50,478 nucleotides of DNA from a virus (lineage: Duplodnaviria > Caudoviricetes): positions 1 to 50,478 of the IMG/VR virus record IMGVR_UViG_3300023176_000477; one strand, given 5' to 3'. The notes under the pieces were generated by a model. The model had not been told where the DNA came from and did no database searches. It saw nothing but the letters and a program-made list of their open reading frames with translations. Shown in pieces: positions 1-50,478 of this stretch (position 1 is its first letter; every line of letters begins with the position of its first letter). The translations under genes and the position numbers were made by a program.

Positions 1-139
1 GTTCCCACACTGCACACCAACCATATGGTGCTACTTGTTCCTGAAATTTAACGCAATAGTTATTAGAATAATATTCGCAATTACTACAATACTGACCAAT
101 TGTATTACTTCTGTTAACATATGCTCCTGGTAACGCCAT
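1..139 (-). CDS. Minimal HiPIP-like Fe-S protein (truncated by window edge; not in ORF track)
   Basis: Hand translation MALPGAYVNRSNTIGQYCSNCEYYSNNYCVKFQEQVAPYGWCAVWE shows Y..CxxC..C..VxPxGWCxxW. Confidence 0.7.
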   Translation of the reverse strand, partial: MALPGAYVNRSNTIGQYCSNCEYYSNNYCVKFQEQVAPYGWCAVWE

Positions 140-267
140 TATTTATTCTTACGTATTTTTTTAATTTTATTGTTATGTGTTTTAGCATATATAAAGTTTT
201 TAGTTTCACGAGTAACTGTACCTCTATAGGTTTTGCCACCCCACTTCCAACTTACTGTTTTAGCCAT
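139..267 (-). CDS. 42-aa basic protein, possible Tudor/SH3-like barrel (not in ORF track)
   Basis: MAKTVSWKWGGKTYRGTVTRETKNFIYAKTHNNKIKKIRKNK; TAATG-coupled to the next ORF; conserved at 41758-41886. Confidence 0.7.
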   Translation of the reverse strand: MAKTVSWKWGGKTYRGTVTRETKNFIYAKTHNNKIKKIRKNK

Positions 268-268
268 A

Positions 269-565
269 CTACCACTTAACTTTATCAGCCCAATAAGCTG
301 CTGACATTTTACCTTTTTTAATATTTTTAGCGTGTCTTGCTTTAAAAGATTTACGTTTCTTTTTCATTTTATCTGATTCACCAGCTTTAGGTTTACCAGC
401 AGTCTTAGCACCTTGCTCACCAAATCTAATTAATTTATATTTGCCATTAGAACTAGCCATAACAACATGTGATTTACTTGGATGACTAGGTGTACGCTTA
501 GGTTTATTAACACCTTTAAGACCGTTCTTTTTCATGGTAGCTTTTACTCTATCTGGAACTGCCAT
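269..565 (-). CDS. Small Lys-rich phage protein
   Basis: AGGAG SD; IRFGxQG...SFKARH...AYWA.KVKW motif; conserved in copy B. Confidence 0.85.
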   Translation of the reverse strand: MAVPDRVKATMKKNGLKGVNKPKRTPSHPSKSHVVMASSNGKYKLIRFGEQGAKTAGKPKAGESDKMKKKRKSFKARHAKNIKKGKMSAAYWADKVKW

Positions 566-618
566 TATATCTCCTGTTTTCTTTACGTACTAAGTATACT
601 GATATTACGTCAATAAAG

Positions 619-684
619 CTATTCGCAATGACAATTAATACTGCCATCAGGACAGTTACATATTTGAATAATTGTTTCATCCAT
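619..684 (-). CDS. 21-aa Cys-rich micropeptide (not in ORF track)
   Basis: MDETIIQICNCPDGSINCHCE; synonymous third-position changes and same stop position versus 42233-42319. Confidence 0.55.
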   Translation of the reverse strand: MDETIIQICNCPDGSINCHCE

Positions 685-880
685 TTAATTTAAATAATAA
701 TTCTGTAAAGTTAGATTCTAACATATCTAATTCACTATTCATTTCTAATACCATAGCATCACAAGCGTTTTGATGTGATTTAATTTCTTCTATAGAGTTA
801 AATACCCAACCAAATGCACCAAGCATTGCTGATAACACTATAGGTATAATTGTTTTGGTGTCTATTTTTATTTGTGACAT
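677..880 (-). CDS. Small protein with N-terminal TM helix and coiled coil (lysis-region membrane protein)
   Basis: IIPIVLSAMLGAFGWVF then heptads; AGGAG SD; conserved in copy B. Confidence 0.8.
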   Translation of the reverse strand: MSQIKIDTKTIIPIVLSAMLGAFGWVFNSIEEIKSHQNACDAMVLEMNSELDMLESNFTELLFKLNG

Positions 881-887
881 TGTTCTC

Positions 888-1061
888 CTACATTAAGGCA
901 GCAACAACAACACCACCTACTGCTACCAATAAGCCTAATACTTTATAAAATTCTGCTTTGTCTAGTTTTGCATCTAGTTTACTATCGATTTCATCAAGGC
1001 GTTTTAATACCATATCTAACATCTCCTTTTGTGTATAACCATTACCAAGATAGTCAGACAT
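888..1061 (-). CDS. 57-aa coiled-coil protein with C-terminal TM helix (not in ORF track)
   Basis: MSDYLGNGYTQKEMLDMVLKRLDEIDSKLDAKLDKAEFYKVLGLLVAVGGVVVAALM; mostly synonymous differences from 42532-42705. Confidence 0.8.
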   Translation of the reverse strand: MSDYLGNGYTQKEMLDMVLKRLDEIDSKLDAKLDKAEFYKVLGLLVAVGGVVVAALM

Positions 1062-1219
1062 TATGGAAGGTCATCCTCTGACATATAAATGTCATCACTC
1101 CAGGTGTATGATTTATCGTAGTAGTTACGATTTTCCCAATCCCAAGTGCTTAATTTTTTAAGAGATGATAGAATATCTTTTAAAAAAATACCTAATAAAA
1201 ATCCAATTATAAAATCCAT
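1061..1219 (-). CDS. 52-aa membrane-anchored protein, probably leaderless (not in ORF track)
   Basis: MDFIIGFLLGIFLKDILSSLKKLSTWDWENRNYYDKSYTWSDDIYMSEDDLP; TATAAT 7 nt upstream of ATG; conserved at 42705-42863. Confidence 0.75.
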   Translation of the reverse strand: MDFIIGFLLGIFLKDILSSLKKLSTWDWENRNYYDKSYTWSDDIYMSEDDLP

Positions 1220-1227
1220 AAGCAGGA

Positions 1228-1923
1228 TTATAACATAAACTTTTTAGGTTTTCGTTTAACTATATTTTTAGATATCTTATTTATATTATTAACAAAACTT
1301 GTAATATTTTTTATTTGATTATAATAATTTAATGTTTCTTTATTAAATTCTTTATAATTTATATTAATGTTTTTATTAAATAATAAATACATCATTGGTT
1401 TATTTTTTTTAAAATTAACAATTCCTGGTTTGTTTTTATCTATTAATAACCAAGCACTATTAATAGGTCTTATCCATAAATTAATATTAAATGCACCTGG
1501 AACAAATTGTAAATTTGTTGTTTCTATATTAGGTGGCAAAGTAATTATTTCTGTATTTTTGATATCTGTATATAAATTATACGGTAATAAAAATTGCAAA
1601 TCTACAATATTATTTTTTTTATTAACTGCAATAACATTTTTTAAATAAGTAATTAAATCAATATTATTAGGTGCGTTTTTGTATTGAAAATTATAAGTTA
1701 CATTGTTTATATTTTTATCATAGTTAATTTCAATTTGTAAATCTAAAGGAGAGTTAATATAAAATAATCTATTATTTACTGAACTAACAGCAGGACATTT
1801 AGGATTATCTATTAAAGTATATTGTTCAATATTATTAAAAAAACCTTTTGGTACAAAAATATTATCTTCGTTTTTTATATCGTAATAGACATTAGCTTTT
1901 TGTAAATTAAAAAATATACTCAT
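1228..1923 (-). CDS. Accessory beta-rich protein (CP...PG.F.I..W.RP family, possibly dUTPase-like fold)
   Basis: CPAV, VPGAFNINLWIRP motifs shared with 43837-44523 and 43115-43840. Confidence 0.75.
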   Translation of the reverse strand: MSIFFNLQKANVYYDIKNEDNIFVPKGFFNNIEQYTLIDNPKCPAVSSVNNRLFYINSPLDLQIEINYDKNINNVTYNFQYKNAPNNIDLITYLKNVIAVNKKNNIVDLQFLLPYNLYTDIKNTEIITLPPNIETTNLQFVPGAFNINLWIRPINSAWLLIDKNKPGIVNFKKNKPMMYLLFNKNININYKEFNKETLNYYNQIKNITSFVNNINKISKNIVKRKPKKFML

Positions 1924-2612
1924 TATTTTTTAATATTCTTTTTATATCCGCCAACAAAAGTATTTTGTATTCTAGCTTTTTCAATTAATATTTTATTTTT
2001 AAATTTTTTATTATAAGGTTTAACTTTATAAATAAATTTTTCTCTTTTAAAAGGAACTAAATAGCACAATGGAGTTCCACTTTTAATAAACACTTCGTTA
2101 TCTTTAGAAGTAAACATTAATTGTAAAACTATTTCACTTATTTTATCAGCTTCATAAACTCCATAAGCTATATGCCAATCAGGATTGTAATCATATATTA
2201 ATGGAACTTGTCTTAAACTATATCCTCTTGGAACTATTAATTGAAAAGGACTTATAATTTTAAATACTTTTTTAATATTTGAATTAGAAAAATAATCTAC
2301 AAATTGATTATCAGTATGATGTTGTAAATAAAATCCTGTATGTTCAGGTACTTCCCAATAATGTTTTTTATTTTCATCTACACTTAAATACATATCACAA
2401 TGTGCATATATAATGATTCCTTCTTTAAATATATCTACAAAACTTGGACATTGTTTTGCGGTTCTTAAATTAGGAAATTTACTAGGTCCTCTTTCAACAT
2501 TACTAGGAATATTTTTAAAATATTTTGGTATATCTTTATAAGCAGGTTTAGGAATTATATTATTAATTGATAATAATTCTTTTCTTTCAGTAGTAATTAT
2601 TATTTTTTTCAT
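1923..2612 (-). CDS. Accessory beta-rich protein (K.CPSF.D...GTPLCY..PFKR family)
   Basis: Clear diverged homologue of 44513-45250; ATG 2612 follows AGGTGG. Confidence 0.8.
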   Translation of the reverse strand: MKKIIITTERKELLSINNIIPKPAYKDIPKYFKNIPSNVERGPSKFPNLRTAKQCPSFVDIFKEGIIIYAHCDMYLSVDENKKHYWEVPEHTGFYLQHHTDNQFVDYFSNSNIKKVFKIISPFQLIVPRGYSLRQVPLIYDYNPDWHIAYGVYEADKISEIVLQLMFTSKDNEVFIKSGTPLCYLVPFKREKFIYKVKPYNKKFKNKILIEKARIQNTFVGGYKKNIKK

Positions 2613-2633
2613 ATCCACCTAGTTTAATTGATA

Positions 2634-3053
2634 TTAAGAAACAGACCAACCTTGTGTATTATCAGCTTGATACGCAGCTTCATCCCAATAATAATTATCA
2701 TTATTATAATCAGAAGGATAATCAATAGGTGGTTTCCAATCCCATATATTTGTATCTAGCACCCAACTATTTTTATCTAAAGGTTTTACAGGATAAAATA
2801 CATCATTGATTTCATCATAATAATCACCCATAGATGCAAAGTTTCCTCTAAATGGAGTGCCACCTAATATGTGTGTATTGTGCATTGTGTTATAAGAAGT
2901 TCTTACAACTTTTGCATTATTACAAAATTTTTTACTAATATAATCTTCCCAATTTTCATAACCTTCAGGTAATAAACTTAAATCGTCTTCATCTTTTCCT
3001 GTTAATACTCCAGTTACAATATTATTATTGTCTAGTACTGCATAATGTGCCAT
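2634..3053 (-). CDS. Tail-fibre-associated Trp/Pro-rich protein
   Basis: MAHYAVLD..TSYN..RGNFA..KP..SW.LD..W..P..YP..WDE pattern; directly after the Gly-rich gene; ATG 3053 preferred. Confidence 0.7.
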   Translation of the reverse strand: MAHYAVLDNNNIVTGVLTGKDEDDLSLLPEGYENWEDYISKKFCNNAKVVRTSYNTMHNTHILGGTPFRGNFASMGDYYDEINDVFYPVKPLDKNSWVLDTNIWDWKPPIDYPSDYNNDNYYWDEAAYQADNTQGWSVS

Positions 3054-3994
3054 TAGATACTCCAACTTACATTGTCTGAACCTGAAGTAAAATAATGTAT
3101 TTTATATTCACCACTTGTTACATAATTGTGTGTTAATAATGGACCAACAGTTGCTGTGTACTTAGCTGGATATTTAATAATAACTACACCTGAACCTCCA
3201 GCACCTGAAAAAGCATTATAATCACTTCCTCCACCACCGCCTGTGTTAACTGTTCCTGATACTCCATTTAATCCAGCGTCTTTTTCACCTCGGCCTCCAC
3301 CGCCAAGACCACCAGTTCCTTCTTGAAATGAACTAGCTGAACCACCACCACCTGCATAATATACATCAGAACCTTGAACATCTCCTACACTAGCAGTTGT
3401 AGCATCAGAAGCTGGTAATAAATTACAGATTACACCATCACCACCGTGAGTTCCATAACCGCCATAATTAGTAGTACCGACTTCAGAAGCACCGCCACCA
3501 CCGCCACCACCATCTTGTGTGTTAGCACCACCTCCTGCAAAACCTTGATTTGTTTCTCCTGCAGCACCTGCAGCACCACCATTATTAGAAGCACCTCCAC
3601 CTGAACCTCCAGTTCTATTTCCACCGTGGCGACCTTGACCACCACCGCCACCAATAGCAACTACAGGTTGAAAAGAACTTGCACTACCTTGACCACCGCC
3701 ATATCCGTATGTAGCACCACCACCTGCACCTACAGCAACTAAATAATCTTTTTCTAATTCAATAAAATTCTTAGGTGCAGCATCATCACCACCACCTGAG
3801 TTTTCTTCTGTAGTAGAGTTAATAAAACCTCCACCACCGCCACCACCAGTTCTACGGTTATTATCACCACCACCGCCACCGCCTCCACCAGCGACAACTA
3901 AATATTCTACAGCAAATCCTTTAAAAGCACTATTACTAAGAGTATTTGATTTACTTGCAGATATACCTTGATTACTTAATGATGTAATTGACAT
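3053..3994 (-). CDS. Glycine-rich tail fibre / receptor-binding protein, allele A
   Basis: EYLVVAGGGGG...YAGGGG...NTGGGGG...GGSGVVIIKY polyglycine architecture. Confidence 0.8.
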   Translation of the reverse strand: MSITSLSNQGISASKSNTLSNSAFKGFAVEYLVVAGGGGGGGGDNNRRTGGGGGGGFINSTTEENSGGGDDAAPKNFIELEKDYLVAVGAGGGATYGYGGGQGSASSFQPVVAIGGGGGQGRHGGNRTGGSGGGASNNGGAAGAAGETNQGFAGGGANTQDGGGGGGGASEVGTTNYGGYGTHGGDGVICNLLPASDATTASVGDVQGSDVYYAGGGGSASSFQEGTGGLGGGGRGEKDAGLNGVSGTVNTGGGGGSDYNAFSGAGGSGVVIIKYPAKYTATVGPLLTHNYVTSGEYKIHYFTSGSDNVSWSI

Positions 3995-4011
3995 TTAAAC
4001 TCCTATAATAA

Positions 4012-4341
4012 TTATGATATTTCTGTACCAAACACAGAAAAACTTACATCAGCACTTGAAGCTGTTGCAGTTACTACATCTGTAGTAGCTAAAGTTATAC
4101 CTAATGTTAATGTAACAGTATCATTAGCAGCTATATTTGCATCTTTAACAATAAAATGTTCATTAGCTTCTGCTGCACCTGATGGTCTAACAGATAAACT
4201 AAATGTTTTTGTTGCTGCACTTCTATTACAAACTACAATAGTTGAAACTATTGCTTCTGTTGAAGCTGGTACTGTATAAACATCAACTGAAGTAGTAAAA
4301 GCATCTCCAGTTTGTCCTAATACTTTATACGCATTTGCCAT
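4012..4341 (-). CDS. Small virion/tail structural protein
   Basis: MANAYKVLGQ..IVVCNR..LTLGITL..SFSVFGTE; GGAG SD; homologue at 46544-46876. Confidence 0.75.
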   Translation of the reverse strand: MANAYKVLGQTGDAFTTSVDVYTVPASTEAIVSTIVVCNRSAATKTFSLSVRPSGAAEANEHFIVKDANIAANDTVTLTLGITLATTDVVTATASSADVSFSVFGTEIS

Positions 4342-4372
4342 ATTTTATCTCCAATTATATTTTTATATTATA

Positions 4373-4576
4373 CTATACACCTACCAAAAGCAAGGTTTCT
4401 TCAGACAAATAAATTAATGCGTGTCCACTATCAGACCACAACATCATTTGTTCGCCTTCATTTATTCCACCACCACCTGCATCAGGTAGTAAATCTATAT
4501 CTTCATCTATTGGCAAATTACCAATAGTATCTATTCCTAAACTTCCACCTTCTTTGAGCATTAATAACATACCCAT
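4373..4576 (-). CDS. Small acidic tail-region protein
   Basis: N-terminal half nearly identical to 46906-47103; C-terminal half diverged. Confidence 0.7.
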   Translation of the reverse strand: MGMLLMLKEGGSLGIDTIGNLPIDEDIDLLPDAGGGGINEGEQMMLWSDSGHALIYLSEETLLLVGV

Positions 4577-5178
4577 TATGCACCCATTACTATAAAAGGA
4601 TGAACTTCTACTGGAGGTGCAACTTGACTTACATAAACTTTTTTAGCTGTGCTATCTGTTGCATCATAAACTAAAGCATAGTCTGCTTCAACATCTACTG
4701 TAATTCCAGTACCATCAGTAGCACCATCAAACATAGCTGTAGCTGAAGCTGCAGTAATAGCATCTATAGCTGCTTGACCTTCTGTTAATATACCTGCAAC
4801 TCTATCATTTTGGTCATTTATGTGTTGTGCTAGTACAGCCATTCTAACTGTAGTACCAATACCGTGTGATATACCTGTATCAGCTGCAGCACCTGCTGCT
4901 TCTTGTCTACCATCATAATCTCTTTCAACATCACTAAATGTTGTAGAACCTGATGTATGTGTTTTAACTACTACAATTTCTCTGTTAGATGTACTGTCTG
5001 GGTCAATAACTAAATATACCCAAGTATCTGCATCACCAGTTGTAGCTGATGTAATACCATTAGTACCATCTATTGTTGGTGTAGATGCAACGTCAAATGA
5101 TGTAGCACCTGCACTAAAATCTGAATTAGCAATAGTAGTTTCATAAAAGTTAAATACTTGTGTTGCTCTATCTGCCAT
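4576..5178 (-). CDS. Tail structural protein
   Basis: Ala/Thr/Asp-rich; TAATG coupling suggests start at 5178 (MADRATQ). Confidence 0.75.
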   Translation of the reverse strand: MADRATQVFNFYETTIANSDFSAGATSFDVASTPTIDGTNGITSATTGDADTWVYLVIDPDSTSNREIVVVKTHTSGSTTFSDVERDYDGRQEAAGAAADTGISHGIGTTVRMAVLAQHINDQNDRVAGILTEGQAAIDAITAASATAMFDGATDGTGITVDVEADYALVYDATDSTAKKVYVSQVAPPVEVHPFIVMGA

Positions 5179-7160
5179 TATGCTCCGTATCTCATTATAC
5201 CCCAAGCAGCAATACCTGGTGTATGTATTGATGTTACTTCTTCAATAGTACCTTGTCTAGTACCACGCACTGTAATAATAGCATACATTGTATCACTTCC
5301 AATTACTTCATTAGATTGTATAGGATAACTTATTTGCTCTACTACACCACGAATAATTTCTTGTGGTTCAAATATTTCTAATGTTACTGAATCACCTTCT
5401 TTAGCACGTAATGCTTTATATAAAGTATCTCCAAGACCTTTTACTTTTAATGGTTTTCTACCAGGTCTTTCTACTCTATCACTAATGTTTATAGGTATTT
5501 GTGCTACTACAAGTTCTGGTCTTGCTAATGCACGAAACTGTACTGATTTGACTTTAGGAGTTGACATACCATCTGTACTTCTAAGTATGACTTTACCTAT
5601 AATATATCTAGAAACTTCTGCTATTTGTTTTTCTTCGTCACCTGTACCACCAAGTTGTGTTAAAGCATTAGTAAACGTAGCAGACTCAGGTGCATCTAAA
5701 TCTTCAAATCTAGTTGAATATTGTAAACTTACTTGTGTATCTGCAGGCATTGTAACAGTAGATACTTCTGCACCTACAAACTGTTTAGATTCTGCAGTAA
5801 AAAAATCTGCAGCAGATAACACTACATAACCTTCAGATTCATATGTAGATGTTTCTTTATATACATCAGAACCTTCAACTACTATTACAAATTTACCATC
5901 AGATTGTGTAATACCTGATACATAACTATTACCAACTGTTTGTAAATCTCTAGCCAAACCACCTGTTGGTAGGTAATATCGCCACAAATTTACTTCATTA
6001 GTATCTTCTTTAACACCCATATACACACTATCACGGCTTACAAACATAGCGTGTGGTGTTGTATCTACGTTATCAACAACCCATTCTTTTACTAATTGTC
6101 TATTAGCAAGTACATATAAATCATCAGCATTAACAAGGTCTGCTCTGTATAACCTACCTACATCTCTTGTATTTTCTTTAGTACCAAAAAATATAATTCC
6201 TTCTGCAGCTGCAATAGAATGTATTTCTTCAAAAGGTATTTTTGTTTGTCCTTGATTTACAAATACACCAGATGACAATTTAAATGAATATATATTACCA
6301 TCAGTACTAGCTGTTAATACAACAGCTCCACCATCAACAATACCTGTTATTTCGTGTGTAGGTTCTACTTCTATTATTGCGTCAACAACAGCAAAAGCTG
6401 ATGCCCAGCTATCTGCAAATGCATCACCTTCCCATACATATTCTGCAGTACCATCATTACCAGTAACAAACAAAGTATTTTTAACAAACCATACACCTGT
6501 TAATCCACCTGTTGTATTAAAAGCTGTGTTATGTGTAGACCAACCGTGTCCATCTGGTTCATAATGTATAAACTCTGAGTTAGTATTAGTAGCATCAGCA
6601 GTAGTAAAATATACTGTGTTTCCAAATGCTGCAGCACCTGTAAAGTTATAAGTTGCACCATTAGTTGCAGCTAAAATAGCACTCCAAGTTTCTGTACTAG
6701 CATCATATTCGTGTACAGTTGTACCATCAGTGACGTATATATTACCGTTAGTAGTTTGTGTCATATAGTTATTGCTAGCACCAAAAGATAAACTTTCTGT
6801 AGCTGTCGTATATAACAAATGTATATGATATGCAGTTTCATCATCTCCGTGAAATACATCAATACCTTTGCTATCCCAAAATCTATTAACATCATCTGGT
6901 TTACCATCAGCTCTATGTGCAGTATCTAATCCTTGACCTGCAGAAAAATTGTTTCTTGAATATATACGTCCTAAGTTAGAAGTAAAATCTTCAGGGTTTT
7001 GTTTGACGTTTACGTTTTGTCCTTGTTGTACATCAGATGATTGTATAGTCATTTCACGACCAGGACCTACAGCTGTACGTAAATATATATTATCTAACTT
7101 TATATCATAACCAAATCGTTTTGGATTACGAACATTAGAAGTTGATGCAACTCTAGCCAT
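5178..7160 (-). CDS. Putative tail nozzle / packaged-DNA stabilisation protein (beta-propeller-like)
   Basis: 660 aa, beta-rich; position after the adaptor in a podovirus-like gene order. Confidence 0.6.
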   Translation of the reverse strand: MARVASTSNVRNPKRFGYDIKLDNIYLRTAVGPGREMTIQSSDVQQGQNVNVKQNPEDFTSNLGRIYSRNNFSAGQGLDTAHRADGKPDDVNRFWDSKGIDVFHGDDETAYHIHLLYTTATESLSFGASNNYMTQTTNGNIYVTDGTTVHEYDASTETWSAILAATNGATYNFTGAAAFGNTVYFTTADATNTNSEFIHYEPDGHGWSTHNTAFNTTGGLTGVWFVKNTLFVTGNDGTAEYVWEGDAFADSWASAFAVVDAIIEVEPTHEITGIVDGGAVVLTASTDGNIYSFKLSSGVFVNQGQTKIPFEEIHSIAAAEGIIFFGTKENTRDVGRLYRADLVNADDLYVLANRQLVKEWVVDNVDTTPHAMFVSRDSVYMGVKEDTNEVNLWRYYLPTGGLARDLQTVGNSYVSGITQSDGKFVIVVEGSDVYKETSTYESEGYVVLSAADFFTAESKQFVGAEVSTVTMPADTQVSLQYSTRFEDLDAPESATFTNALTQLGGTGDEEKQIAEVSRYIIGKVILRSTDGMSTPKVKSVQFRALARPELVVAQIPINISDRVERPGRKPLKVKGLGDTLYKALRAKEGDSVTLEIFEPQEIIRGVVEQISYPIQSNEVIGSDTMYAIITVRGTRQGTIEEVTSIHTPGIAAWGIMRYGA

Positions 7161-8170
7161 TAGGTTGGATACAATATACTATTTAATTGAACTGGTTCTG
7201 GGTATTTAGACCTTAAATTACTTCTAGCTTGTTGTATTAATAACTGTTGATATCTTAATAAACTACTGCTAATACTATTAGAACTACCTACAGGATAGTT
7301 TTGTGCAGCCATTTGTTCTGTAATATATCTTGCATCAACATTTTTAATATCTTTACCAACTAGCATTTGAGCAGCTACACCAGCCATAACAATTGGTTCA
7401 TACTCTGTTTCTAAACCTACACTAGATAATGTTGTTTCTTCTGATGTTGGTGCTACAAATTTCTTTTTAAAAGTTACATACACAGTATGACCTGCTGATA
7501 TACCCACAAACTGTACAGCATGAACTACGTTGGGACCTGAAGTATAAGTTTTAGTTCTTTCTGTTTGTGTATCATCAGTCCATACAAAAGGATTAGGTAA
7601 GTCAATCATTTCTATAGCTACACCATTATATTTAAGTCCTGTTTGGTCTGAGCCTGATTGCCAATCTGTATATTGTGATATAGCTTTTAATGGTGCTATT
7701 AAATAATTATTAGTATCTACGTCTGTACCATATGTACCAAGTAATTTATAACCTGTACTAGCAGTAAGTTCTATTGTTTCTACGGCAAATAATGTAGGAT
7801 AAAGATTTTTAATTTGGTCTGATACTGCATCATATACTGCTTGTCTTGTAAATGCAGGAGCTATTTTAATTATATCGTTTGCATCATGTGTAGTAGCAGT
7901 AGTACCTCTAACTCCACGTTCAACTGTTATTTCATTAGTAACGGCATTAAGAGATTTAGAAAACATTAATTCTCTATTAACTTCTATAATTGCACCAGCA
8001 CCTAATGCGTCTTCTTCTTCTGTAGAAAACAGACCTTCTTCATAGTTAATGGTGCTTTGTGTTGTAGTTGTTACATCACCAGTTAAATAAGAATAAGATT
8101 CAACAGAATCCATTGGCTCTAGGTATTCTCTAAATACCCTGTCTACTAGGTTGCCTATTGTGTCACTCAC
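7160..8170 (-). CDS. Putative head-tail adaptor
   Basis: Position after capsid genes; helical termini around a beta insert (ERGVRGTTATTH); GTG start with AGGAG. Confidence 0.6.
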   Translation of the reverse strand: MSDTIGNLVDRVFREYLEPMDSVESYSYLTGDVTTTTQSTINYEEGLFSTEEEDALGAGAIIEVNRELMFSKSLNAVTNEITVERGVRGTTATTHDANDIIKIAPAFTRQAVYDAVSDQIKNLYPTLFAVETIELTASTGYKLLGTYGTDVDTNNYLIAPLKAISQYTDWQSGSDQTGLKYNGVAIEMIDLPNPFVWTDDTQTERTKTYTSGPNVVHAVQFVGISAGHTVYVTFKKKFVAPTSEETTLSSVGLETEYEPIVMAGVAAQMLVGKDIKNVDARYITEQMAAQNYPVGSSNSISSSLLRYQQLLIQQARSNLRSKYPEPVQLNSILYPT

Positions 8171-8178
8171 AATGACTC

Positions 8179-8511
8179 CTAACTTTGTTTAAATATAAGT
8201 TGTATATTTCTATCAGCTAATTCAGTTGCATCTGAAGATACTCTAATAAATCCAGCAGTAGCAAAAGCCCAACCACTAGGGTCAACTCTTACAACATCAC
8301 CAGCTGTAACTGTATAAGTTACTTCAGTACCATCAGTTTCTACTACATCTACCCAAGTACTTCCATCAAATGAAAAATCAAATGTTACGGCTGTACCTGT
8401 CATAGCTGCAGGAAATACTATACCAGATAGTAATAAACCATCTGCTTGTACACCTGTAGAGTTAACTGCATCTTCTGATATATCTATTAAAACTTTTTTT
8501 GATAATTGCAT
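8179..8511 (-). CDS. Small virion beta-sandwich protein
   Basis: 110 aa with S.DG.TW motif; GAGG SD. Confidence 0.7.
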   Translation of the reverse strand: MQLSKKVLIDISEDAVNSTGVQADGLLLSGIVFPAAMTGTAVTFDFSFDGSTWVDVVETDGTEVTYTVTAGDVVRVDPSGWAFATAGFIRVSSDATELADRNIQLIFKQS

Positions 8512-8527
8512 ATTGTCCTCACTATAG

Positions 8528-8568: not shown

Positions 8569-8575
8569 AAATAAA

Positions 8576-10401: not shown

Positions 10402-10403
10402 CA

Positions 10404-41886: not shown

Positions 41887-42179
41887 TACCACTTAACCTT
41901 ATGTGACCAATACTTAGCAGATAATTTAGATTTAGGTTTACCTTGTGCATTATGTCTAGCATAATACGACTTTTTACGTGCTTTATCTTTTTTACTTTTA
42001 GGATTTTTACCAGCACCTTTAACACCTTGTTGTCCAAATCTAATTAACTTATACTTGTTACCTTCTTTAGCCATAACAACATGTGATTTTGTTTTGTGAC
42101 TAGGTGTAAGCTTAGGTTTATTAACACCTTTAAGGCCGTTCTTTTTCATAATAGCTTTAACTCTATCTGGAACTGCCAT
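41886..42179 (-). CDS. Small Lys-rich phage protein, copy B
   Basis: Homologue of 269-565 with a diverged C-half. Confidence 0.85.
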   Translation of the reverse strand: MAVPDRVKAIMKKNGLKGVNKPKLTPSHKTKSHVVMAKEGNKYKLIRFGQQGVKGAGKNPKSKKDKARKKSYYARHNAQGKPKSKLSAKYWSHKVKW

Positions 42180-42232
42180 TATATCTCCTGTTTTCTCGTT
42201 TAACTAAGTATAATGATAGTATATTACTAAAG

Positions 42233-42319
42233 CTAGTTATTAGTGCAGTTATCACTGCCGTGCTTACAATTACAAATTTGTACAAACGAACCATCTTCTT
42301 TTTCTTTTACCATACACAT
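42233..42319 (-). CDS. 28-aa Cys-rich micropeptide, copy B (not in ORF track)
   Basis: MCMVKEKEDGSFVQICNCKHGSDNCTNN; AGGAGG SD. Confidence 0.6.
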   Translation of the reverse strand: MCMVKEKEDGSFVQICNCKHGSDNCTNN

Positions 42320-42320
42320 A

Positions 42321-42524
42321 CTATCCTCCTATTTTAAATAATAACTCTGTAAAATTAGATTCTAACATATCTAGTTCACTATTCATTTCCATAACCATAG
42401 CATCACAAGCGTTCTGATGTGATTTAATTTCTTCTATCGAGTTGAATACCCAACCAAATGCACTAATTACTATTGTTGCAATTATTGGAATGATTGTTTT
42501 TGTGTCTATTTTTAATGTTGCCAT
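42321..42524 (-). CDS. TM + coiled-coil protein, copy B
   Basis: Homologue of 677-880. Confidence 0.8.
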   Translation of the reverse strand: MATLKIDTKTIIPIIATIVISAFGWVFNSIEEIKSHQNACDAMVMEMNSELDMLESNFTELLFKIGG

Positions 42525-42531
42525 TATTCTC

Positions 42532-42705
42532 CTACATTAAGGCAGCAACAACAACACCACCTACTGCTACCAATAATCCTAATACTTTATAAAATTCTGC
42601 TTTGTCTAGTTTTGCGTCTAGTTTACTATCTATTTCATCAAGGCGTTTTAATACCATATCTAACATCTCCTTCTGTGTATAACCATTACCGAGATAGTCA
42701 GACAT
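42532..42705 (-). CDS. 57-aa coiled-coil + TM protein, copy B
   Basis: Homologue of 888-1061. Confidence 0.8.
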   Translation of the reverse strand: MSDYLGNGYTQKEMLDMVLKRLDEIDSKLDAKLDKAEFYKVLGLLVAVGGVVVAALM

Positions 42706-42863
42706 TATGGAAGGTCATCCTCTGACATATAGATGTCATCACTCCAGGTGTATGCTTTATCGTAGTAGTTACGATTTTCCCAATCCCAAGTACTTAATCT
42801 TTTAAGAGTTGATACAATATCTTTTAAAAAAATACCTAATAAAAACCCAATTATAAAATCCAT
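42705..42863 (-). CDS. 52-aa membrane-anchored protein, copy B
   Basis: Homologue of 1061-1219. Confidence 0.75.
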   Translation of the reverse strand: MDFIIGFLLGIFLKDIVSTLKRLSTWDWENRNYYDKAYTWSDDIYMSEDDLP

Positions 42864-42881
42864 AAGCAGGATTATAACATA

Positions 42882-43118
42882 TTATAACTTTTTGGAAATC
42901 ATTTTAGAACTTCTACCAGTTTTAGTATTTTTATTTTTTTCTATAACTTCAGAAGTTAAATATTTTTTAATATCTTCTTCTTTTAATATTAATTCATTAG
43001 TTGCATAACTAACAATTTTTTCTACTTCTTCAGGATTGTGCATATCTATTTCTTTATCAACTAAAATATCATCAATCCATAAACTAAATTTAACTGAATA
43101 ACTTATATATTCTTTCAT
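42882..43118 (-). CDS. Hypothetical protein unique to cassette B
   Basis: 78 aa, ATGA overlap; no counterpart in copy A. Confidence 0.6.
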   Translation of the reverse strand: MKEYISYSVKFSLWIDDILVDKEIDMHNPEEVEKIVSYATNELILKEEDIKKYLTSEVIEKNKNTKTGRSSKMISKKL

Positions 43119-43840
43119 TCTATAATCCTTTCTTTTATTTTAGCTAAAGTTTTATTTAACATTTTACTTTCGTGAAATCTAGCATATCTATTTATTAACG
43201 GTACATTGCTTTCCCAAGAACTTGCAGTACTACAAACATTCATAATTTTTGCTAAATCATTTGACATTTCAAACATTTTAAATTTAATTTTTTTATTTGT
43301 TAAAAAATTAATAAAAGCTAAAGGTTCATTTTGTTTAATAATAAATTCATCTACATTTGACCACAAGTTAAATTCTACTTGTATAGGTCTAAACCATTTA
43401 CCAATATTATATTGTCCAGGAGTTACTGAACCATATTGCATATGAGGTGCATTAATAAAATAAGGAGCTGTAAATTGAACTTCTAAACTTTCATCAGCAA
43501 ATAATATTATTGGATAACTATATTCTAATAATATTTGATTATTTAATTGTGGTTCTCTTTTTATTGTTGCACTTAAAGAATTTTTACCAGTAGATAAAGC
43601 AACGTTTGTTATTTTATAACTAGATTCTATAGGATTTTCTAACACATATAAATTTTTAGATAAGTTTTGATAAGCAGTACAAGATAAATAAGCTCTATTA
43701 TTTAGTTCTTTACTACGAGTTTTATTTATATTTTTATTTAATAAACTACTTAAACTAACAGGTTCTTTATAAAGTATTGACCAATCTTCTGTTTGATGTA
43801 AATTATCAGGACTTGCATAATATACAGTTATTTCTTTCAT
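43115..43840 (-). CDS. Accessory beta-rich family paralogue unique to cassette B
   Basis: YLSCTAY, TPGQYNIGKWFRP, IKQNEPLAFINF. Confidence 0.75.
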   Translation of the reverse strand: MKEITVYYASPDNLHQTEDWSILYKEPVSLSSLLNKNINKTRSKELNNRAYLSCTAYQNLSKNLYVLENPIESSYKITNVALSTGKNSLSATIKREPQLNNQILLEYSYPIILFADESLEVQFTAPYFINAPHMQYGSVTPGQYNIGKWFRPIQVEFNLWSNVDEFIIKQNEPLAFINFLTNKKIKFKMFEMSNDLAKIMNVCSTASSWESNVPLINRYARFHESKMLNKTLAKIKERIIE

Positions 43841-44523
43841 AATAATTTATTAGGTCTTTTATTAATTATGTTATTAATTATAGGTCTAACATTTTTATAG
43901 TAACTTACAATATTGTTACTGTATTTATAATATTTATTTATATTATCTGTACTATCTATATAATTTAAATCTACTTTGTAATTGAACATTAAGTTAGCAA
44001 ATGATTTACCAAGTGTTAATGTTACAGTTGCTGATTTATCTGTTGTTTGCATATAAGTAGGATTTATTTCTCTTATCCAATTATTAATATAAAAACCTCC
44101 AGGTACAAATACACAATTATCATAAGTTTTTTCATCAGGTGGTAACATAGTAATTTCAATATCTTTAGCATCATCAGTAGCAAACACTAAATAAGTATGC
44201 AATTGCAAAACAGCTCTACCATTATGTAGCTGTACATTAATTATATGATTAAATACATCACTGACTTCATCTGTTACTTGCATATCTTTATTATTAAAAT
44301 TCCAATAAGCAAATGGTTTTGCATTGTTATCAAGACCAAAAGTAATTTCTACAGTGTATGGAGATAATAAGTTATACAATTTATTATGCGTAGATTTAAT
44401 AGCAGGACAACCAAAGTCAATTGTTTTTCTTTTAATAATTTCAGGTAACAAAAACTTAGGTATTATTGAGTTAGGACTTTGCGTGTAAGATACTTTATGT
44501 TTTTTTTTATCATTAAATATCAT
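43837..44523 (-). CDS. Accessory beta-rich family protein, homologue of 1228-1923
   Basis: GCPAI, FVPGGFYINNWIR, C-terminal KRP.KL. Confidence 0.75.
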   Translation of the reverse strand: MIFNDKKKHKVSYTQSPNSIIPKFLLPEIIKRKTIDFGCPAIKSTHNKLYNLLSPYTVEITFGLDNNAKPFAYWNFNNKDMQVTDEVSDVFNHIINVQLHNGRAVLQLHTYLVFATDDAKDIEITMLPPDEKTYDNCVFVPGGFYINNWIREINPTYMQTTDKSATVTLTLGKSFANLMFNYKVDLNYIDSTDNINKYYKYSNNIVSYYKNVRPIINNIINKRPNKLL

Positions 44524-45250
44524 ATTTACGTTTTTTAAAATATCCTTTACTAAAACTTCTATGTGCTAAATATTGTGATTTAATAACTTTATTTTTAAGT
44601 TCTTCATCCATAGGTTTCATTTCTACTTTTGTATCAGTTCTTTTAAATGGAATGTAATAACATAGTGGTGTTCCAGCTTTTATATACACTTCATCTTTAT
44701 CACTAACATAAAATATTTGTGGATTAACTTCGTGATGAATATCAATATCTATAACACCATATGGTACATACCAATCATCCATTTGGTCATAATGATAAAA
44801 CATTGGTAACTGCATTAAACTATAACCAGGAGGACCTATTATTTGTATTGGATTTACAAATTTAAATACTTTTTTAATTGGACTATTTATGTGTTGTATC
44901 ATTTGACTATCGTGATGTATTTCTATTTCAAATGCTTCATTAGCAATTTTCCAATAATTAATATCGTGATTATCTTTAGCTACAGAAAACCACATATCTA
45001 CAGGTGCAGGTAATACATAACCTAAATTAAATATATCAGCAAAACTAGGACAATATTTTACAGTTCTACCATTAGGTATTATTTCTTTTCCTACAACAGG
45101 AAATGACAAACCTTCTTCATTTATATCTCTTGGGATATTTTTCCACCAAGGTGGTATAAATTTATTAGCTGGTTGTAAATGCACATCTAATGATGAATAA
45201 ACACCCATATTAAATGTACAGGTTATTATTTTATCTTTTTTGAATTTCAT
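44513..45250 (-). CDS. Accessory beta-rich family protein, homologue of 1923-2612
   Basis: RTVKYCPSFADIF, IKAGTPLCYYIPFKR. Confidence 0.8.
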   Translation of the reverse strand: MKFKKDKIITCTFNMGVYSSLDVHLQPANKFIPPWWKNIPRDINEEGLSFPVVGKEIIPNGRTVKYCPSFADIFNLGYVLPAPVDMWFSVAKDNHDINYWKIANEAFEIEIHHDSQMIQHINSPIKKVFKFVNPIQIIGPPGYSLMQLPMFYHYDQMDDWYVPYGVIDIDIHHEVNPQIFYVSDKDEVYIKAGTPLCYYIPFKRTDTKVEMKPMDEELKNKVIKSQYLAHRSFSKGYFKKRKYDI

Positions 45251-45276
45251 AGTTCCACCTTACTATAGTTAATATT

Positions 45277-45651
45277 TTATTCTTGAACTTCCCATTGTTG
45301 TAGTTCTTCATTCCAATGTTTATAAACACCTACAGGTTCAACTGGATATTCAACAGGTGCTACCCATTCAGCATTATCAACATCTAATGTCCAACTATCA
45401 AAAGGTTTTGGAGGCATAAATATATCGTGTTCTCTAATATAAAGATACCCTTCACTAGCATAGTTACCACGTATATTATTATTATAAGAAGTTTTTAACC
45501 AAATTGTTTCTTCACCATATAATGATTTACAAAAAGCAATACCTGCTTCTTCTGTTTCTAATTGTGTTACAGGGTCTAAGTTGTCATTATCATTAACTGC
45601 AATAACTCTTAATACATTATCTTGGTTATCTAATTCTGCGTAATAAGCCAT
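45277..45651 (-). CDS. Tail-fibre-associated protein, allele B
   Basis: MAYYAELD..TSYN..RGNYA..PPKP..SW.LD..W. Confidence 0.7.
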   Translation of the reverse strand: MAYYAELDNQDNVLRVIAVNDNDNLDPVTQLETEEAGIAFCKSLYGEETIWLKTSYNNNIRGNYASEGYLYIREHDIFMPPKPFDSWTLDVDNAEWVAPVEYPVEPVGVYKHWNEELQQWEVQE

Positions 45652-45653
45652 AG

Positions 45654-46535
45654 TTATTTCCTATACTTTACTATAACAACACCTTTACCACCTGAACCGC
45701 CACCAACGTTACCAGCGTATGAAGTACCTCCACCGCCACCTCCTCCAAGGTTAGCTGTTCCTGATTGTCCACCACCGCCACCAGAGCCGCCATTTCCACC
45801 GCCTCCGTCACCGCCTGGTTGACCACCACTTAATTCTCCACCAGCACCACCGCCACCATAAGTAACAGCTGTACCAGTTATGCTTGAAGTACGTCCTTCA
45901 CCACCGTGACCATCACCATCATTATCTCCTACAGTTCCTGCACCACCGCCAGAACCACCAGAACCTGAACCATAACCACCATTATATCCTTCAGGAGTAC
46001 TGTCATAAGAGGAGTTACCGCCTATATTACCTGAACCAGGAGAACGTCCTCTACCACCGCCACCGCCAGTTCCTCCATTACCACCATTATTATTAGGTGC
46101 AAATCCACCTCCGCCTCCTCCATAAGATGAAGCAAAGTTTGAGAAAGATGACATACCACCTCTAGATGCAGTAGCTGCGTATCCAGAACCACCAGAACCA
46201 TTACCAATAGTTATTGTATAACTACCTGGTCCTAAAGGAGTTGTTGTTGTACCAGTACGAAAGCCTCCACCTCCGCCACCGCCACCTTCGTTAGAGCCTT
46301 CAGTAGCTAATCCACCACCAGCTCCTCCTCCAACAACGACAAACTCAACAGCTCTTTTACCAAAAGTAATATTAAAACTTCCACTGTTATTAAATTTATG
46401 CACTAAATAACCATTAACTTCGGTTACTACATCACCACCTGATGCTTTAAAACCACCACCATATTCATTACCAACACTAGCTGCACGGAATGAACCTCCG
46501 TTAACTCCTTGTCCTCTAGCAGACTTTACGCTCAT
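45654..46535 (-). CDS. Glycine-rich tail fibre / receptor-binding protein, allele B
   Basis: ASGG..YLVHKF..EFVVVGGG..GGKGVVIVKY. Confidence 0.8.
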   Translation of the reverse strand: MSVKSARGQGVNGGSFRAASVGNEYGGGFKASGGDVVTEVNGYLVHKFNNSGSFNITFGKRAVEFVVVGGGAGGGLATEGSNEGGGGGGGGFRTGTTTTPLGPGSYTITIGNGSGGSGYAATASRGGMSSFSNFASSYGGGGGGFAPNNNGGNGGTGGGGGRGRSPGSGNIGGNSSYDSTPEGYNGGYGSGSGGSGGGAGTVGDNDGDGHGGEGRTSSITGTAVTYGGGGAGGELSGGQPGGDGGGGNGGSGGGGGQSGTANLGGGGGGGTSYAGNVGGGSGGKGVVIVKYRK

Positions 46536-46543
46536 TTAAACTC

Positions 46544-46876
46544 CTAAGCTGTTATTACTGTACCAAATGCACTAAAACTTACATCTGCTGTGCTAGCTGT
46601 TGCTTTAAGAACATCACCATCAGCAAGTGTTATACCTAATGTAAGAAATAATGTATCGTTTGCAGGAACTGGTACATCTTTAGAAATGTAATGTTCATCA
46701 CCTGCTGTTTCTCCTGCAGGTACAACTTGCAAGTCATAAGTTTTTTCTGCTGATGACCTATTGCAAATTACAACAGTAGAAACAATTACTTCTCCGTCTT
46801 GGTCAGGTATTAAATCAACAGGTGCGCTTGTAAAAGCGTCTGCTGTTTGTCCTAGTACTTTATATGCGTTTGCCAT
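46544..46876 (-). CDS. Small tail structural protein, allele B
   Basis: Homologue of 4012-4341. Confidence 0.75.
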   Translation of the reverse strand: MANAYKVLGQTADAFTSAPVDLIPDQDGEVIVSTVVICNRSSAEKTYDLQVVPAGETAGDEHYISKDVPVPANDTLFLTLGITLADGDVLKATASTADVSFSAFGTVITA

Positions 46877-46905
46877 ATTTTATCTCCAATTATTTTTCTA
46901 TTATA

Positions 46906-47103
46906 CTACACATCTACTAAAAGCAAGGAATAATCATCAGATAAATAATCTAATGTTAAAGCTGGTGTCCACATAGTTTTTTGTAGAACGTAGCTTATTG
47001 TTGAACCTTCAGGTAATAAATCTATATCTTCATCTATAGGTTTATTTCCAATAGTATCTATTCCTAAACTTCCACCTTCTTTAAGCATTAATAACATACC
47101 CAT
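46906..47103 (-). CDS. Small acidic tail-region protein, allele B
   Basis: Homologue of 4373-4576. Confidence 0.7.
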   Translation of the reverse strand: MGMLLMLKEGGSLGIDTIGNKPIDEDIDLLPEGSTISYVLQKTMWTPALTLDYLSDDYSLLLVDV

Positions 47104-47771
47104 TATGAACCCATCACTAAAAATGGATGAACTTCAACAGGTGCAGCAACTTGATTAACATAAACTTTTTTTGAAGTGCTATCAGTTGCATCATAAACTA
47201 AAACATAATCTGCTGCAGTATCTACTGTAATAGAAGTACCATCAGTAGCATTACTTATCATAGCTGTAGCTGATGAAGCATTAATAGCTGCTATAGCATC
47301 ATCACCATCACTATTAAAATCTGATATAGCTGTTGTACTGTCTGTATCAAAATCTGTTAAAGCATCAGATAATGATGTAATATTTGTAGCAACTCTATCG
47401 TTTTGGTCTTGTATATGTTGTGCAAGTACAGCCATTCTAACTGTAGTACCAATACCGTGTGATACACCTGTATCAGCTGCAGCACCTGCTGCTTCTTGTC
47501 TACCATCATAATCTCTTTCAACATCACTAAATGTTGTAGAACCTGATGTATGTGTTTTAACTACTACAATTTCTCTGTTAGATGTACTGTCTGGGTCAAT
47601 AACTAAATATACCCAAGTATCTGCATCACCAGTTGTAGCTGATGTAATACCATTAGTACCATCTATTGTTGGTGTAGATGCAACGTCAAATGATGTAGCA
47701 CCTGCACTAAAATCTGAATTAGCAATTGTAGATTCATAAAAGTTAAATACTTGTGTTGCTCTATCTGCCAT
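47103..47771 (-). CDS. Tail structural protein, allele B (22 aa longer)
   Basis: Homologue of 4576-5178. Confidence 0.75.
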   Translation of the reverse strand: MADRATQVFNFYESTIANSDFSAGATSFDVASTPTIDGTNGITSATTGDADTWVYLVIDPDSTSNREIVVVKTHTSGSTTFSDVERDYDGRQEAAGAAADTGVSHGIGTTVRMAVLAQHIQDQNDRVATNITSLSDALTDFDTDSTTAISDFNSDGDDAIAAINASSATAMISNATDGTSITVDTAADYVLVYDATDSTSKKVYVNQVAAPVEVHPFLVMGS

Positions 47772-49786
47772 TATGCTCCGTATCTCATTATACCCCAAGA
47801 AGCTATACCTGGTGTATGTATTGATGTTACTTCTTCAATAGTACCTTGTCTAGTACCACGCACTGTAATAATAGCATACATTGTATCACTTCCAACTACA
47901 TCATTAGATTGTATAGGATAACTTATTTGTTCTACTACACCTTTAATAATTTCTTGTGGTTCAAATATTTCTAATGTTACTGAATCACCTTCTTTAGCAC
48001 GTAATGCTTTATATAAAGTATCTCCAAGACCTTTAACTTTTAATGGTTTTCTACCAGGTCTTTCTACTCTATCACTAATGTTTATAGGTATTTGTGCTAC
48101 TACAAGTTCTGGTCTAGCTAATGCACGAAACTGTACTGATTTGACTTTAGGAGTTGACACACCATCTGTACTTTTAAGTATGACTTTACCTATAATATAT
48201 CTTGACACTTCTGCTATTTGTTTTTCTTCGTCACCTGTACCACCAAGTTGTGTTAAAGCATTAGTAAACGTAGCAGACTCAGGTGCATCTAAATCTTCAA
48301 ATCTAGTTGAGTATTGTAAACTTACTTGTGTATCTGCAGGCATTGTAACTGTAGATATTTCTGCACCTACAAACTGTTTACTTTCTGCTGTAAAAAAATC
48401 TGCAGCAGATAATACTAAATAACCTTCAGCTTCATATGTAGATGTTTCTTTATATACATCAGAACCTTCAACTACTACTACAAACTTACCATTAGATTGT
48501 GTAATACCTGATACATAACTATTACCAACTGTTTGTAAATCTCTAGCCAAACCACCTGTTGGTAGATAATATCGCCACAAATTTACTTCATTAGTTGCTT
48601 CTTTAACACCCATATACACACTATCACGGCTTACAAACATAGCGTGTGGTGTTGTATCTACGTTATTAACAACCCATTCTTTTACTAATTGTCTATTAGC
48701 AAGTACATATAAATCATCAGCATTAACAAGTTCTGCTCTGTATAACCTACCTACACTTCTTGTATTTTCTTTAGTACCAAAAAATATAATTCCTTCTGCA
48801 GCAGCAATAGAATGTATTTCTTCAAAAGGTATTTTGGTTTGTCCTTGATTTACAAATATTCCACTAGATAATTTAAATGAATATACATTACCATCAGTAC
48901 TAGCAGCTAAAACTACAGCACCACCATCAACAATACCTGTTATTTGATGTGTAGGTTCTACTTCTATTATTGCATCTCCTGTTGCAAAAGCTGATGCCCA
49001 ACTGTCTGCAAATGCATCACCTTCCCAAACATACTCTGCAGTACCATCATTACCAGTAACAAACAAAGTATTTTTAACAAACCATACGCCTGTTAATCCA
49101 CCTAATGTATTAAAAGCTGTGTTATGTGTAGACCAACCGTGTCCATCTGGTTCATAATGTATAAACTCTGAGTTAGAATTAGTAGCATCAGCAGTAGTAA
49201 AATATACTGTGTTTCCAAATGCAGCAGCACCTGTAAAGTTATAAGTTGCACCATTAGTTGCAGCTAATATAGAACTCCAAGTTCCTGCAGTAGCATCATA
49301 TTCGTGTACAGTTGTACCATCAGTAACGTATATATTACCATTAGTAGTTTGTGTCATATAGTTATTTGTATATGTACCACTTAATATTGCAGTGTCAGTA
49401 GTACCTTCATCAACATCTTTTGCTTGGTCAGTCGTATATAACAAATGTATATGATATGCAGTTTCATCATCTCCGTGAAATACATCAATACCTTTACTAT
49501 CCCAAAATCTATTAACATCATCTGGTTTACCATCACTTCTATGTGCAGTATCTAATCCTTGACCTGCAGAAAAATTGTTTCTTGAATATATACGACCTAA
49601 GTTAGATGTAAAATCTTCAGGATTTTGTTTAACATTAACTTGTTGTCCTTGTTGTACATCAGATGATTGTATTGTCATAGCTCTATCAGGACCTACAGCT
49701 GTACGTAAATATATATTATCTAATCGTATGTCATAACCAAATCGTCTTGGATTACGAACATTAGAAGTTGATGCAACTCTAGCCAT
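47771..49786 (-). CDS. Putative tail nozzle protein, copy B
   Basis: Highly similar to 5178-7160, 11 aa longer. Confidence 0.6.
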   Translation of the reverse strand: MARVASTSNVRNPRRFGYDIRLDNIYLRTAVGPDRAMTIQSSDVQQGQQVNVKQNPEDFTSNLGRIYSRNNFSAGQGLDTAHRSDGKPDDVNRFWDSKGIDVFHGDDETAYHIHLLYTTDQAKDVDEGTTDTAILSGTYTNNYMTQTTNGNIYVTDGTTVHEYDATAGTWSSILAATNGATYNFTGAAAFGNTVYFTTADATNSNSEFIHYEPDGHGWSTHNTAFNTLGGLTGVWFVKNTLFVTGNDGTAEYVWEGDAFADSWASAFATGDAIIEVEPTHQITGIVDGGAVVLAASTDGNVYSFKLSSGIFVNQGQTKIPFEEIHSIAAAEGIIFFGTKENTRSVGRLYRAELVNADDLYVLANRQLVKEWVVNNVDTTPHAMFVSRDSVYMGVKEATNEVNLWRYYLPTGGLARDLQTVGNSYVSGITQSNGKFVVVVEGSDVYKETSTYEAEGYLVLSAADFFTAESKQFVGAEISTVTMPADTQVSLQYSTRFEDLDAPESATFTNALTQLGGTGDEEKQIAEVSRYIIGKVILKSTDGVSTPKVKSVQFRALARPELVVAQIPINISDRVERPGRKPLKVKGLGDTLYKALRAKEGDSVTLEIFEPQEIIKGVVEQISYPIQSNDVVGSDTMYAIITVRGTRQGTIEEVTSIHTPGIASWGIMRYGA

Positions 49787-50478
49787 TAGGTTGGATACAA
49801 TATACTATTTAACTGAACTGGTTCTGGATATTTAGACCTTAAATTACTTCTAGCTTGTTGTATTAATAACTGTTGATAACGTAATAAACTACTGCTAATA
49901 CTATTAGAACTACCTACAGGATAGTTTTGTGCAGCCATTTGTTCTGTAATATACCTAGCATCAACATTTTTAATATCTTTACCAACTAACATTTGAGCAG
50001 CTACACCAGCCATAACAATAGGTTCATATTCTGTTTCTAAACCTACACTAGATAATGTTGTAGCTTCTGATGTAGGTGCTACAAATTTCTTTTTAAAAGT
50101 TACATACACAGTATGACCTGCTGATATACCTACAAACTGTACAGCATGAACTACGTTAGGACCTGAAGTATAAGTTTTAGTTCTTTCTGTTTGTGTATCA
50201 TCAGTCCATACAAAAGGATTAGGAAGGTCAATCATTTCTATAGCTACACCATTATATTTAAGTCCTGTTTGGTCTGAGCCTGATTGCCAATCTGTATATT
50301 GTGATATAGCTTTTAATGGTGCTATTAAATAATTATTAGTATCTACATCACTACCATATGTACCAAGTAATTTATAACCTGTACTAGCAGTAAGTTCTAT
50401 TGTTTCTACGGCAAATAATGTAGGATAAAGATTTTTAATTTGGTCTGATACTGCATCATATACTGCTTGTCTTGTAAA
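49786..50478 (-). CDS. Putative head-tail adaptor, copy B (5' part outside window)
   Basis: Near-identical to the 3' part of 7160-8170; homology continues to the window edge. Confidence 0.8.
   Translation of the reverse strand, partial: FTRQAVYDAVSDQIKNLYPTLFAVETIELTASTGYKLLGTYGSDVDTNNYLIAPLKAISQYTDWQSGSDQTGLKYNGVAIEMIDLPNPFVWTDDTQTERTKTYTSGPNVVHAVQFVGISAGHTVYVTFKKKFVAPTSEATTLSSVGLETEYEPIVMAGVAAQMLVGKDIKNVDARYITEQMAAQNYPVGSSNSISSSLLRYQQLLIQQARSNLRSKYPEPVQLNSILYPT

Follow-up and report, generated by a model that had tools for sequence, protein, structure and literature searches.

In this work we ask why the viral record IMGVR_UViG_3300023176_000477 carries one and the same tail region at both of its ends, in two forms that differ from each other. 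The record is a single metagenome-derived contig, classed as 'linear' and given a CheckV completeness of 100, and the stretch of DNA analysed here (the window) is this entire record of 50,478 bp, with a GC content of 32.7%. The first-pass annotation of this DNA had left two accounts of the repeat side by side: one molecule joining two relatives and carrying two adsorption modules, or an assembly path through two strains. Our analyses indicate that the contig is very probably an over-assembly around a strain bubble in a circular phage map of ~42 kb, its second tail copy being an artefact, and that the real biology behind the record is the presence of two strains that occur together and carry alternative tail-fibre cassettes. 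The assembly path is borne out by contig ends that fall on nodes of a graph of 127-base words (k=127) and by relatives of 41.7-43.9 kb with a single cassette. The single molecule found no support, as the redundancy amounts to 19-21% and the same layout recurs in a second record over a different region.

Two diverged copies of one tail region

The repeat covers the contig from its first base to its last, with the two copies one genome unit apart, such that position 1 corresponds to 41620 and position 7852 to 50478 (Table 1). Joining the single-copy core to either copy gives a unit circle, of 41,619 bp with copy A (left) and 42,626 bp with copy B (right). Alignment with blastn confirmed the earlier description of the copies as colinear and not identical: 4796-7852 matches 47389-50478 at 94.8% nucleotide (nt) identity over 3090 columns, 2-1245 matches 41621-42893 at 82.8% over 1291 columns, and 3992-4770 matches 46533-47297 at 73.9%, along with two weak central matches, all of them in colinear order. 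Protein identity between the copies forms a gradient from 99.1% in a gene of 336 amino acids (aa), through 93.9% in the neighbouring 660/671-aa gene, 88.5% and 63%, to 27-45% in the cassette, with 68.8% on its far side.

The conserved block of the repeat holds 180 mismatches in 3376 columns and four insertions or deletions of 45, 21, 6 and 27 nt, all multiples of 3, with no frameshifts or read-type errors. Codons that differ between A and B are 13 synonymous against 2 non-synonymous in the 336-aa gene and 48 against 40 in the 660/671-aa gene, where 59 of 113 differences fall at position 3. Since the length differences are in frame and the substitutions lean synonymous, sequencing noise is ruled out as the source of the A/B differences, in agreement with what the first-pass annotation had concluded from the intact frames. 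An exact long direct terminal repeat (DTR) is likewise ruled out, because the copies differ.

Two other elements of the earlier description need revision. The central cassette had been called replaced, whereas its two versions are syntenic, with members of PHROG families 17480, 7084, 7759 and 2295 in one common order. The repeated part had also been taken for the lysis end of the genome; no lysis gene was identified in it, and the sole lysozyme-like domain found, of the SLT type, is encoded in the core. Cassette B has two tandem phrog_17480 paralogues (43115-43840, 241 aa; 43837-44523, 228 aa) and cassette A has one (1228-1923).

A Foldseek search of the PDB with an AlphaFold2 model of the 660-aa protein (mean predicted local distance difference test score 69.6) placed the tail complexes of the podoviruses P22, Sf6 and Pan3 at the top (E values 2e-12 to 2e-11; template modelling scores 0.37-0.54). 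On this structural likeness the protein is likely a tail nozzle or hub, a label that we hold at likely, short of proof, because G-protein beta-propellers unrelated to phages also score well in the same fold search. PDB sequence searches with the 660-, 336- and 313-aa proteins gave no matches. The position of the cassette by the nozzle gene, its Gly_rich_2 domain and a weak tail-fibre PHROG match together suggest that it may act in host recognition.

The contig ends on a k-mer node

Beyond the last difference between A and B, at 7725/50351, exactly 127 identical bases follow before the contig stops. The value 127 is a member of the usual assembler k series (21/33/55/77/99/127). This terminal identity run is the second longest of 280 such runs between the copies, positions lying exactly 127 from the previous difference number 2 in 3376, and a random end would fall on any k of that series with p=0.032. 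Duplicated 127-mers account for 136 of the 50,352 in the contig, 135 of them in one internal segment of 261 nt and one at the terminus; because only these repeat, the contig end is the first terminal 127-mer that re-enters used sequence.

An explicit de Bruijn graph with k=127, built from the two circles 1-41619 and 7853-50478, has two fork and two merge vertices, and the last 127 bases of the contig are a merge vertex. At the opposite end, contig position 1 is the base after a fork vertex and the first A/B difference (G versus A at 41620).

Relatives carry a single cassette

Relatives were taken as 63 IMG/VR loci for the 660-aa protein. Among their contigs of at least 40 kb, 13 of 14 measure 40.6-43.9 kb, which matches the two unit circles. 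One nozzle gene each is found in G001 (41,691 bp, exact end overlap of 127 bp), G002 (42,180 bp, 91-bp end overlap) and G005 (43,905 bp, 83-bp end overlap), and the overlap of exactly 127 bp in G001 means that k=127 assemblies exist in the collection. G001 is colinear with the unit circle, running from the 202-aa gene through one cassette, the nozzle gene and the 336-aa gene to the capsid gene; by this gene order, therefore, the left context of B is joined to the right context of A. Both anchors of the cassette, the left one being the 202-aa gene, are present in 33 of the 63 loci, and all 33 have one copy of each at a spacing of 4282-8713 bp, a range that includes the spacings in the window (5180 for A, via the closure, and 6154 for B). 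A nozzle homologue occurs once in 57 of the 63 loci, and the other six, which are partial, have none at a coverage of at least 50%.

Exact matches to window positions 1-40 were found in three metagenome contigs, one of which is also a viral record; each match adjoins a homologue of the 202-aa gene, and the closure 41619|1 thus exists in nature (L056/L088, L089, L090). At the cassette edge L056 is identical to A at 145 of 147 positions and to B at 126 of 147. The left block of B, for its part, is closer to other loci (94.6% to L090, 90.9% to L003 and 86.3% to G001) than to A at 82.8%, and the 97-aa protein of B is 90.7% identical to that of G001 against 68.8% to that of A. In the nozzle block A and B are mutual nearest relatives, at 94.8% versus at most 86% to others. 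By these comparisons A and B are best classed as alleles and not as recent paralogues, and their mosaic is as expected for co-circulating strains that swap tail modules. One contig of metagenomic origin, L090 (2168 bp), combines the exact first 40 nt of A with a sequence that otherwise resembles the left block of B, a pattern that suggests that, in natural populations, recombination acts on a fine scale at the edge of the cassette.

A second over-length record

The same layout was found in G003 (loci L091-L094), a record of 61,426 bp that is also classed as 'linear' and 100% complete. Its positions 1-15854 repeat 47709-61426 (66-86% identity), so that here too the repeat reaches both contig ends, and the redundant block consists of the giant-protein and internal-protein genes, not of the fibre cassette. 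Past the last difference, exactly 77 identical bases remain before the contig ends; they form the longest identity run in the block (the next is 49). G003 is probably another strain-bubble over-assembly. As a diverged repeat recurs over different hypervariable regions, each time with a k-like end, its source is therefore to be sought in the assembler, not in a selected two-cassette design. Another 'linear' record, G004 (loci L098-L100), matches itself at 100% between 1-330 and 43113-43442, with the repeat displaced by 2 bases from the contig terminus; in effect this is a closed genome of 43.1 kb, overlooked by the test for end repeats.

Origin of the contig

In the scenario that we favour, the sample would contain two or more strains from a single podophage population, whose genome map is circular and ~42 kb long, with a core either identical in both strains or collapsed by the assembler, and with the strains differing in the tail region by 5% nt in the nozzle gene, by 17% nt at the left edge and down to 27-45% aa identity in the fibre cassette. 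The assembly graph would then be a cycle with a bubble, through which a short-read metagenome assembler could trace branch A and the core, come to the fork again and leave it by the unused branch B, until the path halts as soon as a k-mer (k=127) brings B back to used sequence. The product would be [A][core][B], equal to 1.2 genome lengths with one gene cut at each end. That both strains were in one sample and that they are identical over the core is what we infer from the contig.

Several observations weigh against this account. No contig near-identical to cassette A alone or to cassette B alone was found, in searches that may pass over records very close to the window; the top matches of the Gly_rich_2 proteins reach 52% aa identity for A (one locus) and 58-64% for B (four loci), and an exact 40-mer spanning the last variants of B gave no match. 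The left end of the contig lacks the fork k-mer itself, with which a plain SPAdes path should begin. Disconnection of a weak strain edge 'by removal of its first k-mer', which the strain-mixture passages of the metaSPAdes paper describe (PMC5411777), fits the coordinate of this end, yet agrees less well with the fact that the far end of branch A is connected to the core. The left end of G003 lies 8 nt ahead of the first difference and not at a difference. In addition, the k-exact right end of the window tells only that B rejoins used sequence, and a true duplication with an identical flank would end alike; the assembler and its k are likewise ones that we infer. The graph model thus accounts for the left end of the window only partly, and the left ends of both the window and G003 possibly reflect edge disconnection or overlap trimming by the assembler.

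The point about the right end bears directly on the idea of a real genome of at least ~50.5 kb, in which recombination produced a tandem, diverged duplication of the tail region with two fibre cassettes and the assembler broke at the identical flank. Reading frames are indeed intact in both copies apart from the end-cut genes, an end k bases after the last variant is expected here too if the copy enters an identical repeat, and phages with two receptor-binding modules exist. Such a genome would, however, be ~20% larger than the rest of its group, would have both boundaries of the repeat exactly at the two contig ends, and would have doubled the nozzle gene and part of the 336-aa gene besides the fibres, whereas every two-anchor relative has one cassette and nearly all loci have one nozzle homologue; the layout of G003, over a different region, fits assembler behaviour instead. 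Because of the genome size and the 33 single-cassette relatives out of 33, we regard this duplication as very improbable. We give as little credence to a wider version, in which a real genome or a recurrent packaged class carries nozzle-plus-fibre modules duplicated in diverged form by recombination in co-infection and G003 is a second instance; if it were true, one virion lineage would encode two alternative nozzle-plus-fibre modules.

Extremely unlikely, in our assessment, is one linear molecule, whether a terminal-redundancy heterozygote or a piece of a hetero-concatemer from two co-infecting strains, packaged by the headful. Its two ends would carry different alleles of the same region, as seen here; a homologue of single-strand annealing proteins is encoded in the window, the relatives assemble as circles, as would be the case for permuted or concatemer-replicating genomes, and heterozygotes of this kind are established for T4 and P22. 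It would nonetheless be a one-off and not a lineage, and could turn up in an assembly only in the form of one long read, whereas the window ends on k=127 graph nodes and has no frameshifts or read-like errors. Moreover, the redundancy is 18.9-20.8% of the unit (7852/41619; 8859/42626), well above the few percent of P22 and T4, and G003 has the same layout with a k=77 end. A further possibility is that the contig is a chimera to which three or more strains contributed, or has a consensus for a core; neither the 1-41619 nor the 7853-50478 circle would then be real, and the cassettes' own strain cores would differ from the printed one. Natural mosaicism of the kind seen in L090, where an exact 40-mer of A sits in a B-like left block, would agree with it, as would the consensus backbone that metaSPAdes builds of strain mixtures, according to the same passages (PMC5411777), and the lack of a clean k signature at the left ends of the window and G003. 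Nothing in the contig speaks against such a chimera, which is a variant of the two-strain assembly path and no true rival to it; we give it a slim chance.

Comparison with known systems

Headful packaging in T4 and P22 gives terminal-redundancy heterozygotes, which are individual molecules, are not inherited and are redundant over a few percent. Like them, the window is a linear sequence whose ends carry two alleles of the same region; it differs from them in the extent of its redundancy, in being an assembly and in having graph nodes for ends. Phages of the T5 and SPO1 type carry long, exact direct terminal repeats, whereas the two copies in the window differ, with nt identities of 94.8% and 82.8% in their flanking parts and aa identities of 27-45% between their centres. 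Nor does the window resemble a phage with two receptor-binding cassettes, as the end genes of its copies are cut and 0 of 33 relatives have two cassettes.

Among assembly artefacts, the strain mixtures discussed for metaSPAdes offer a likeness in that a long, diverged path of a second strain stays uncollapsed and in that the window starts right after the fork k-mer; in the passages concerned, a path that takes both branches of one bubble on a cycle is not described (PMC5411777). The parts of the CheckV paper that deal with terminal repeats report that DTR lengths pile up at the assembler k-mer sizes of 55, 77 and 99 bp and that assemblers concatenate genome copies (PMC8116208). Over-length from circling a template is common to those contigs and to the window, as are end features of length k (127 here, 77 in G003 and the 127-bp overlap of G001). 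Unlike the concatenated contigs treated in those parts of PMC8116208, the window makes its second pass via the branch of the other strain, overshoots by 0.2 genome lengths and not to at least twofold, and has ends that do not overlap.

The variable block itself has a counterpart in metaviromic islands, which Mizuno et al. (2014, PMC3909814) present as hypervariable host-recognition regions of marine phages. Here too a conserved backbone is combined with a variable block by the tail genes, of 4.3-8.7 kb in the 33 relatives, and the cassette proteins of A and B are 27-45% identical versus 94-99% in the adjoining genes.

Consequences for the record

The biology that emerges is ordinary and follows a known pattern: two co-occurring, uncultured podophage strains of marine type have a common backbone and differ in a hypervariable tail-fibre cassette. 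The record, by contrast, inflates the genome by ~21%, counts ten genes twice and is termed 'linear' although it closes into a circle, and it runs the risk of being misread as a phage with a dual host range or with long terminal repeats. Checks for duplicate k-mers and DTRs presumably miss such records, because the second pass is diverged and so few 127-mers repeat. They could be screened for by searching for contigs that are colinear with themselves from end to end, with the similarity breaking off exactly k bases past the last difference.

Gene content of the window

Coordinates of the features are collected in Table 1. The + strand carries an early block with an AAA ATPase, a metallophosphoesterase/exonuclease, a PHROG single-strand annealing protein and the SLT lysozyme domain. 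The annealing protein had been put down as a Sak/Rad52-type annealase; it has a PHROG match of that name, but the Sak/Rad52 type is not supported, as the protein matched no Pfam family. No integrase was found among the 40 window open reading frames (ORFs) scanned against Pfam and no tRNA gene in the window, so that the earlier statement that no integrase or host DNA is visible stands for the ORFs scanned; with no integrase, tRNA or host genes found, a prophage with host flanks is ruled out. Searches of GenBank phages gave no nucleotide match to window positions 1-12000 and no protein match to the 660-aa nozzle-like protein, and the matches of the terminase large subunit, capsid and portal-like proteins are all below 30% aa identity; on account of these low values the phage has no cultured close relative.

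The two genes cut by the contig ends are the copy of the 336-aa gene in B, which lacks its first 106 codons, and the copy of the small gene in A, which lacks a stop codon, in both cases because the contig ends or starts there.

Table 1. Features of the 50,478-bp window, with coordinates in the numbering of the record
Feature	Coordinates	Strand	Remarks
Copy A (version of strain A)	1-7852		tail-fibre cassette, nozzle gene and 3' two-thirds of the 336-aa gene; unbroken into the core
Single-copy core	7853-41619		capsid, internal/giant protein block, portal-like gene, terminase, early genes, 567-aa and 202-aa genes
Copy B (version of strain B)	41620-50478		entered from the core at 41619/41620; right side cut by the contig end
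Small gene, copy A	2-139	-	55 aa in B (41591-41758); open 3' end, without stop codon
Cassette A, strongly diverged centre	1245-4796	-	genes 1228-1923, 1923-2618, 2634-3065, 3053-3994 (Gly_rich_2), 4012-4341
Internal 261-nt stretch	4873-5133		identical to 47466-47726; only other shared run of at least 127 nt; crossed twice by the path
660-aa protein, likely tail hub/nozzle-like, copy A	5178-7160	-	AlphaFold2 and Foldseek
336-aa gene, complete	7160-8170	-	phrog_7578; weak tail-fibre PHROG match
Major capsid protein, SU10-type (SU10_MCP)	8576-9694	-	domain match
1996-aa ORF	15851-21841	-	compared with PHROG only: no match
Portal-like protein	22399-24177		~24% identical to annotated portals
Terminase large subunit	24168-26081	-	sequence match
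PHROG 'single strand annealing protein' match	34732-35298		E 2.6e-10
SLT/lysozyme-like domain protein	36112-36549	+	early-gene block in the core, away from the tail genes
202-aa DUF5675 gene, left anchor	41008-41616	-	borders the cassette
Fork vertex	41493-41619		two-strain k=127 model
Cassette B, syntenic diverged centre	42893-47389	-	genes 43115-43840, 43837-44523, 44513-45250, 45277-45651, 45654-46535 (Gly_rich_2), 46544-46876
671-aa protein, likely tail hub/nozzle-like, copy B	47771-49786	-	93.9% aa identical to A
336-aa gene, copy B	49786-50478	-	without first 106 codons; 230 aa present, 99.1% identical to A
Terminal 127-mer	50352-50478		identical to 7726-7852; merge vertex of the two-strain graph

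Two further observations concern individual genes. The 55-aa small gene (41591-41758, - strand) overlaps the 202-aa gene, annotated with a TTG start on the same strand, by 26 nt, and the true start of the 202-aa gene may be elsewhere than at this TTG. Furthermore, homologues of the 1996-aa ORF in the relatives are 23-31% identical to it, and the adjoining portal and terminase genes 70-90%; judged by these identities, the region of this ORF is a second hypervariable block of the phage group.

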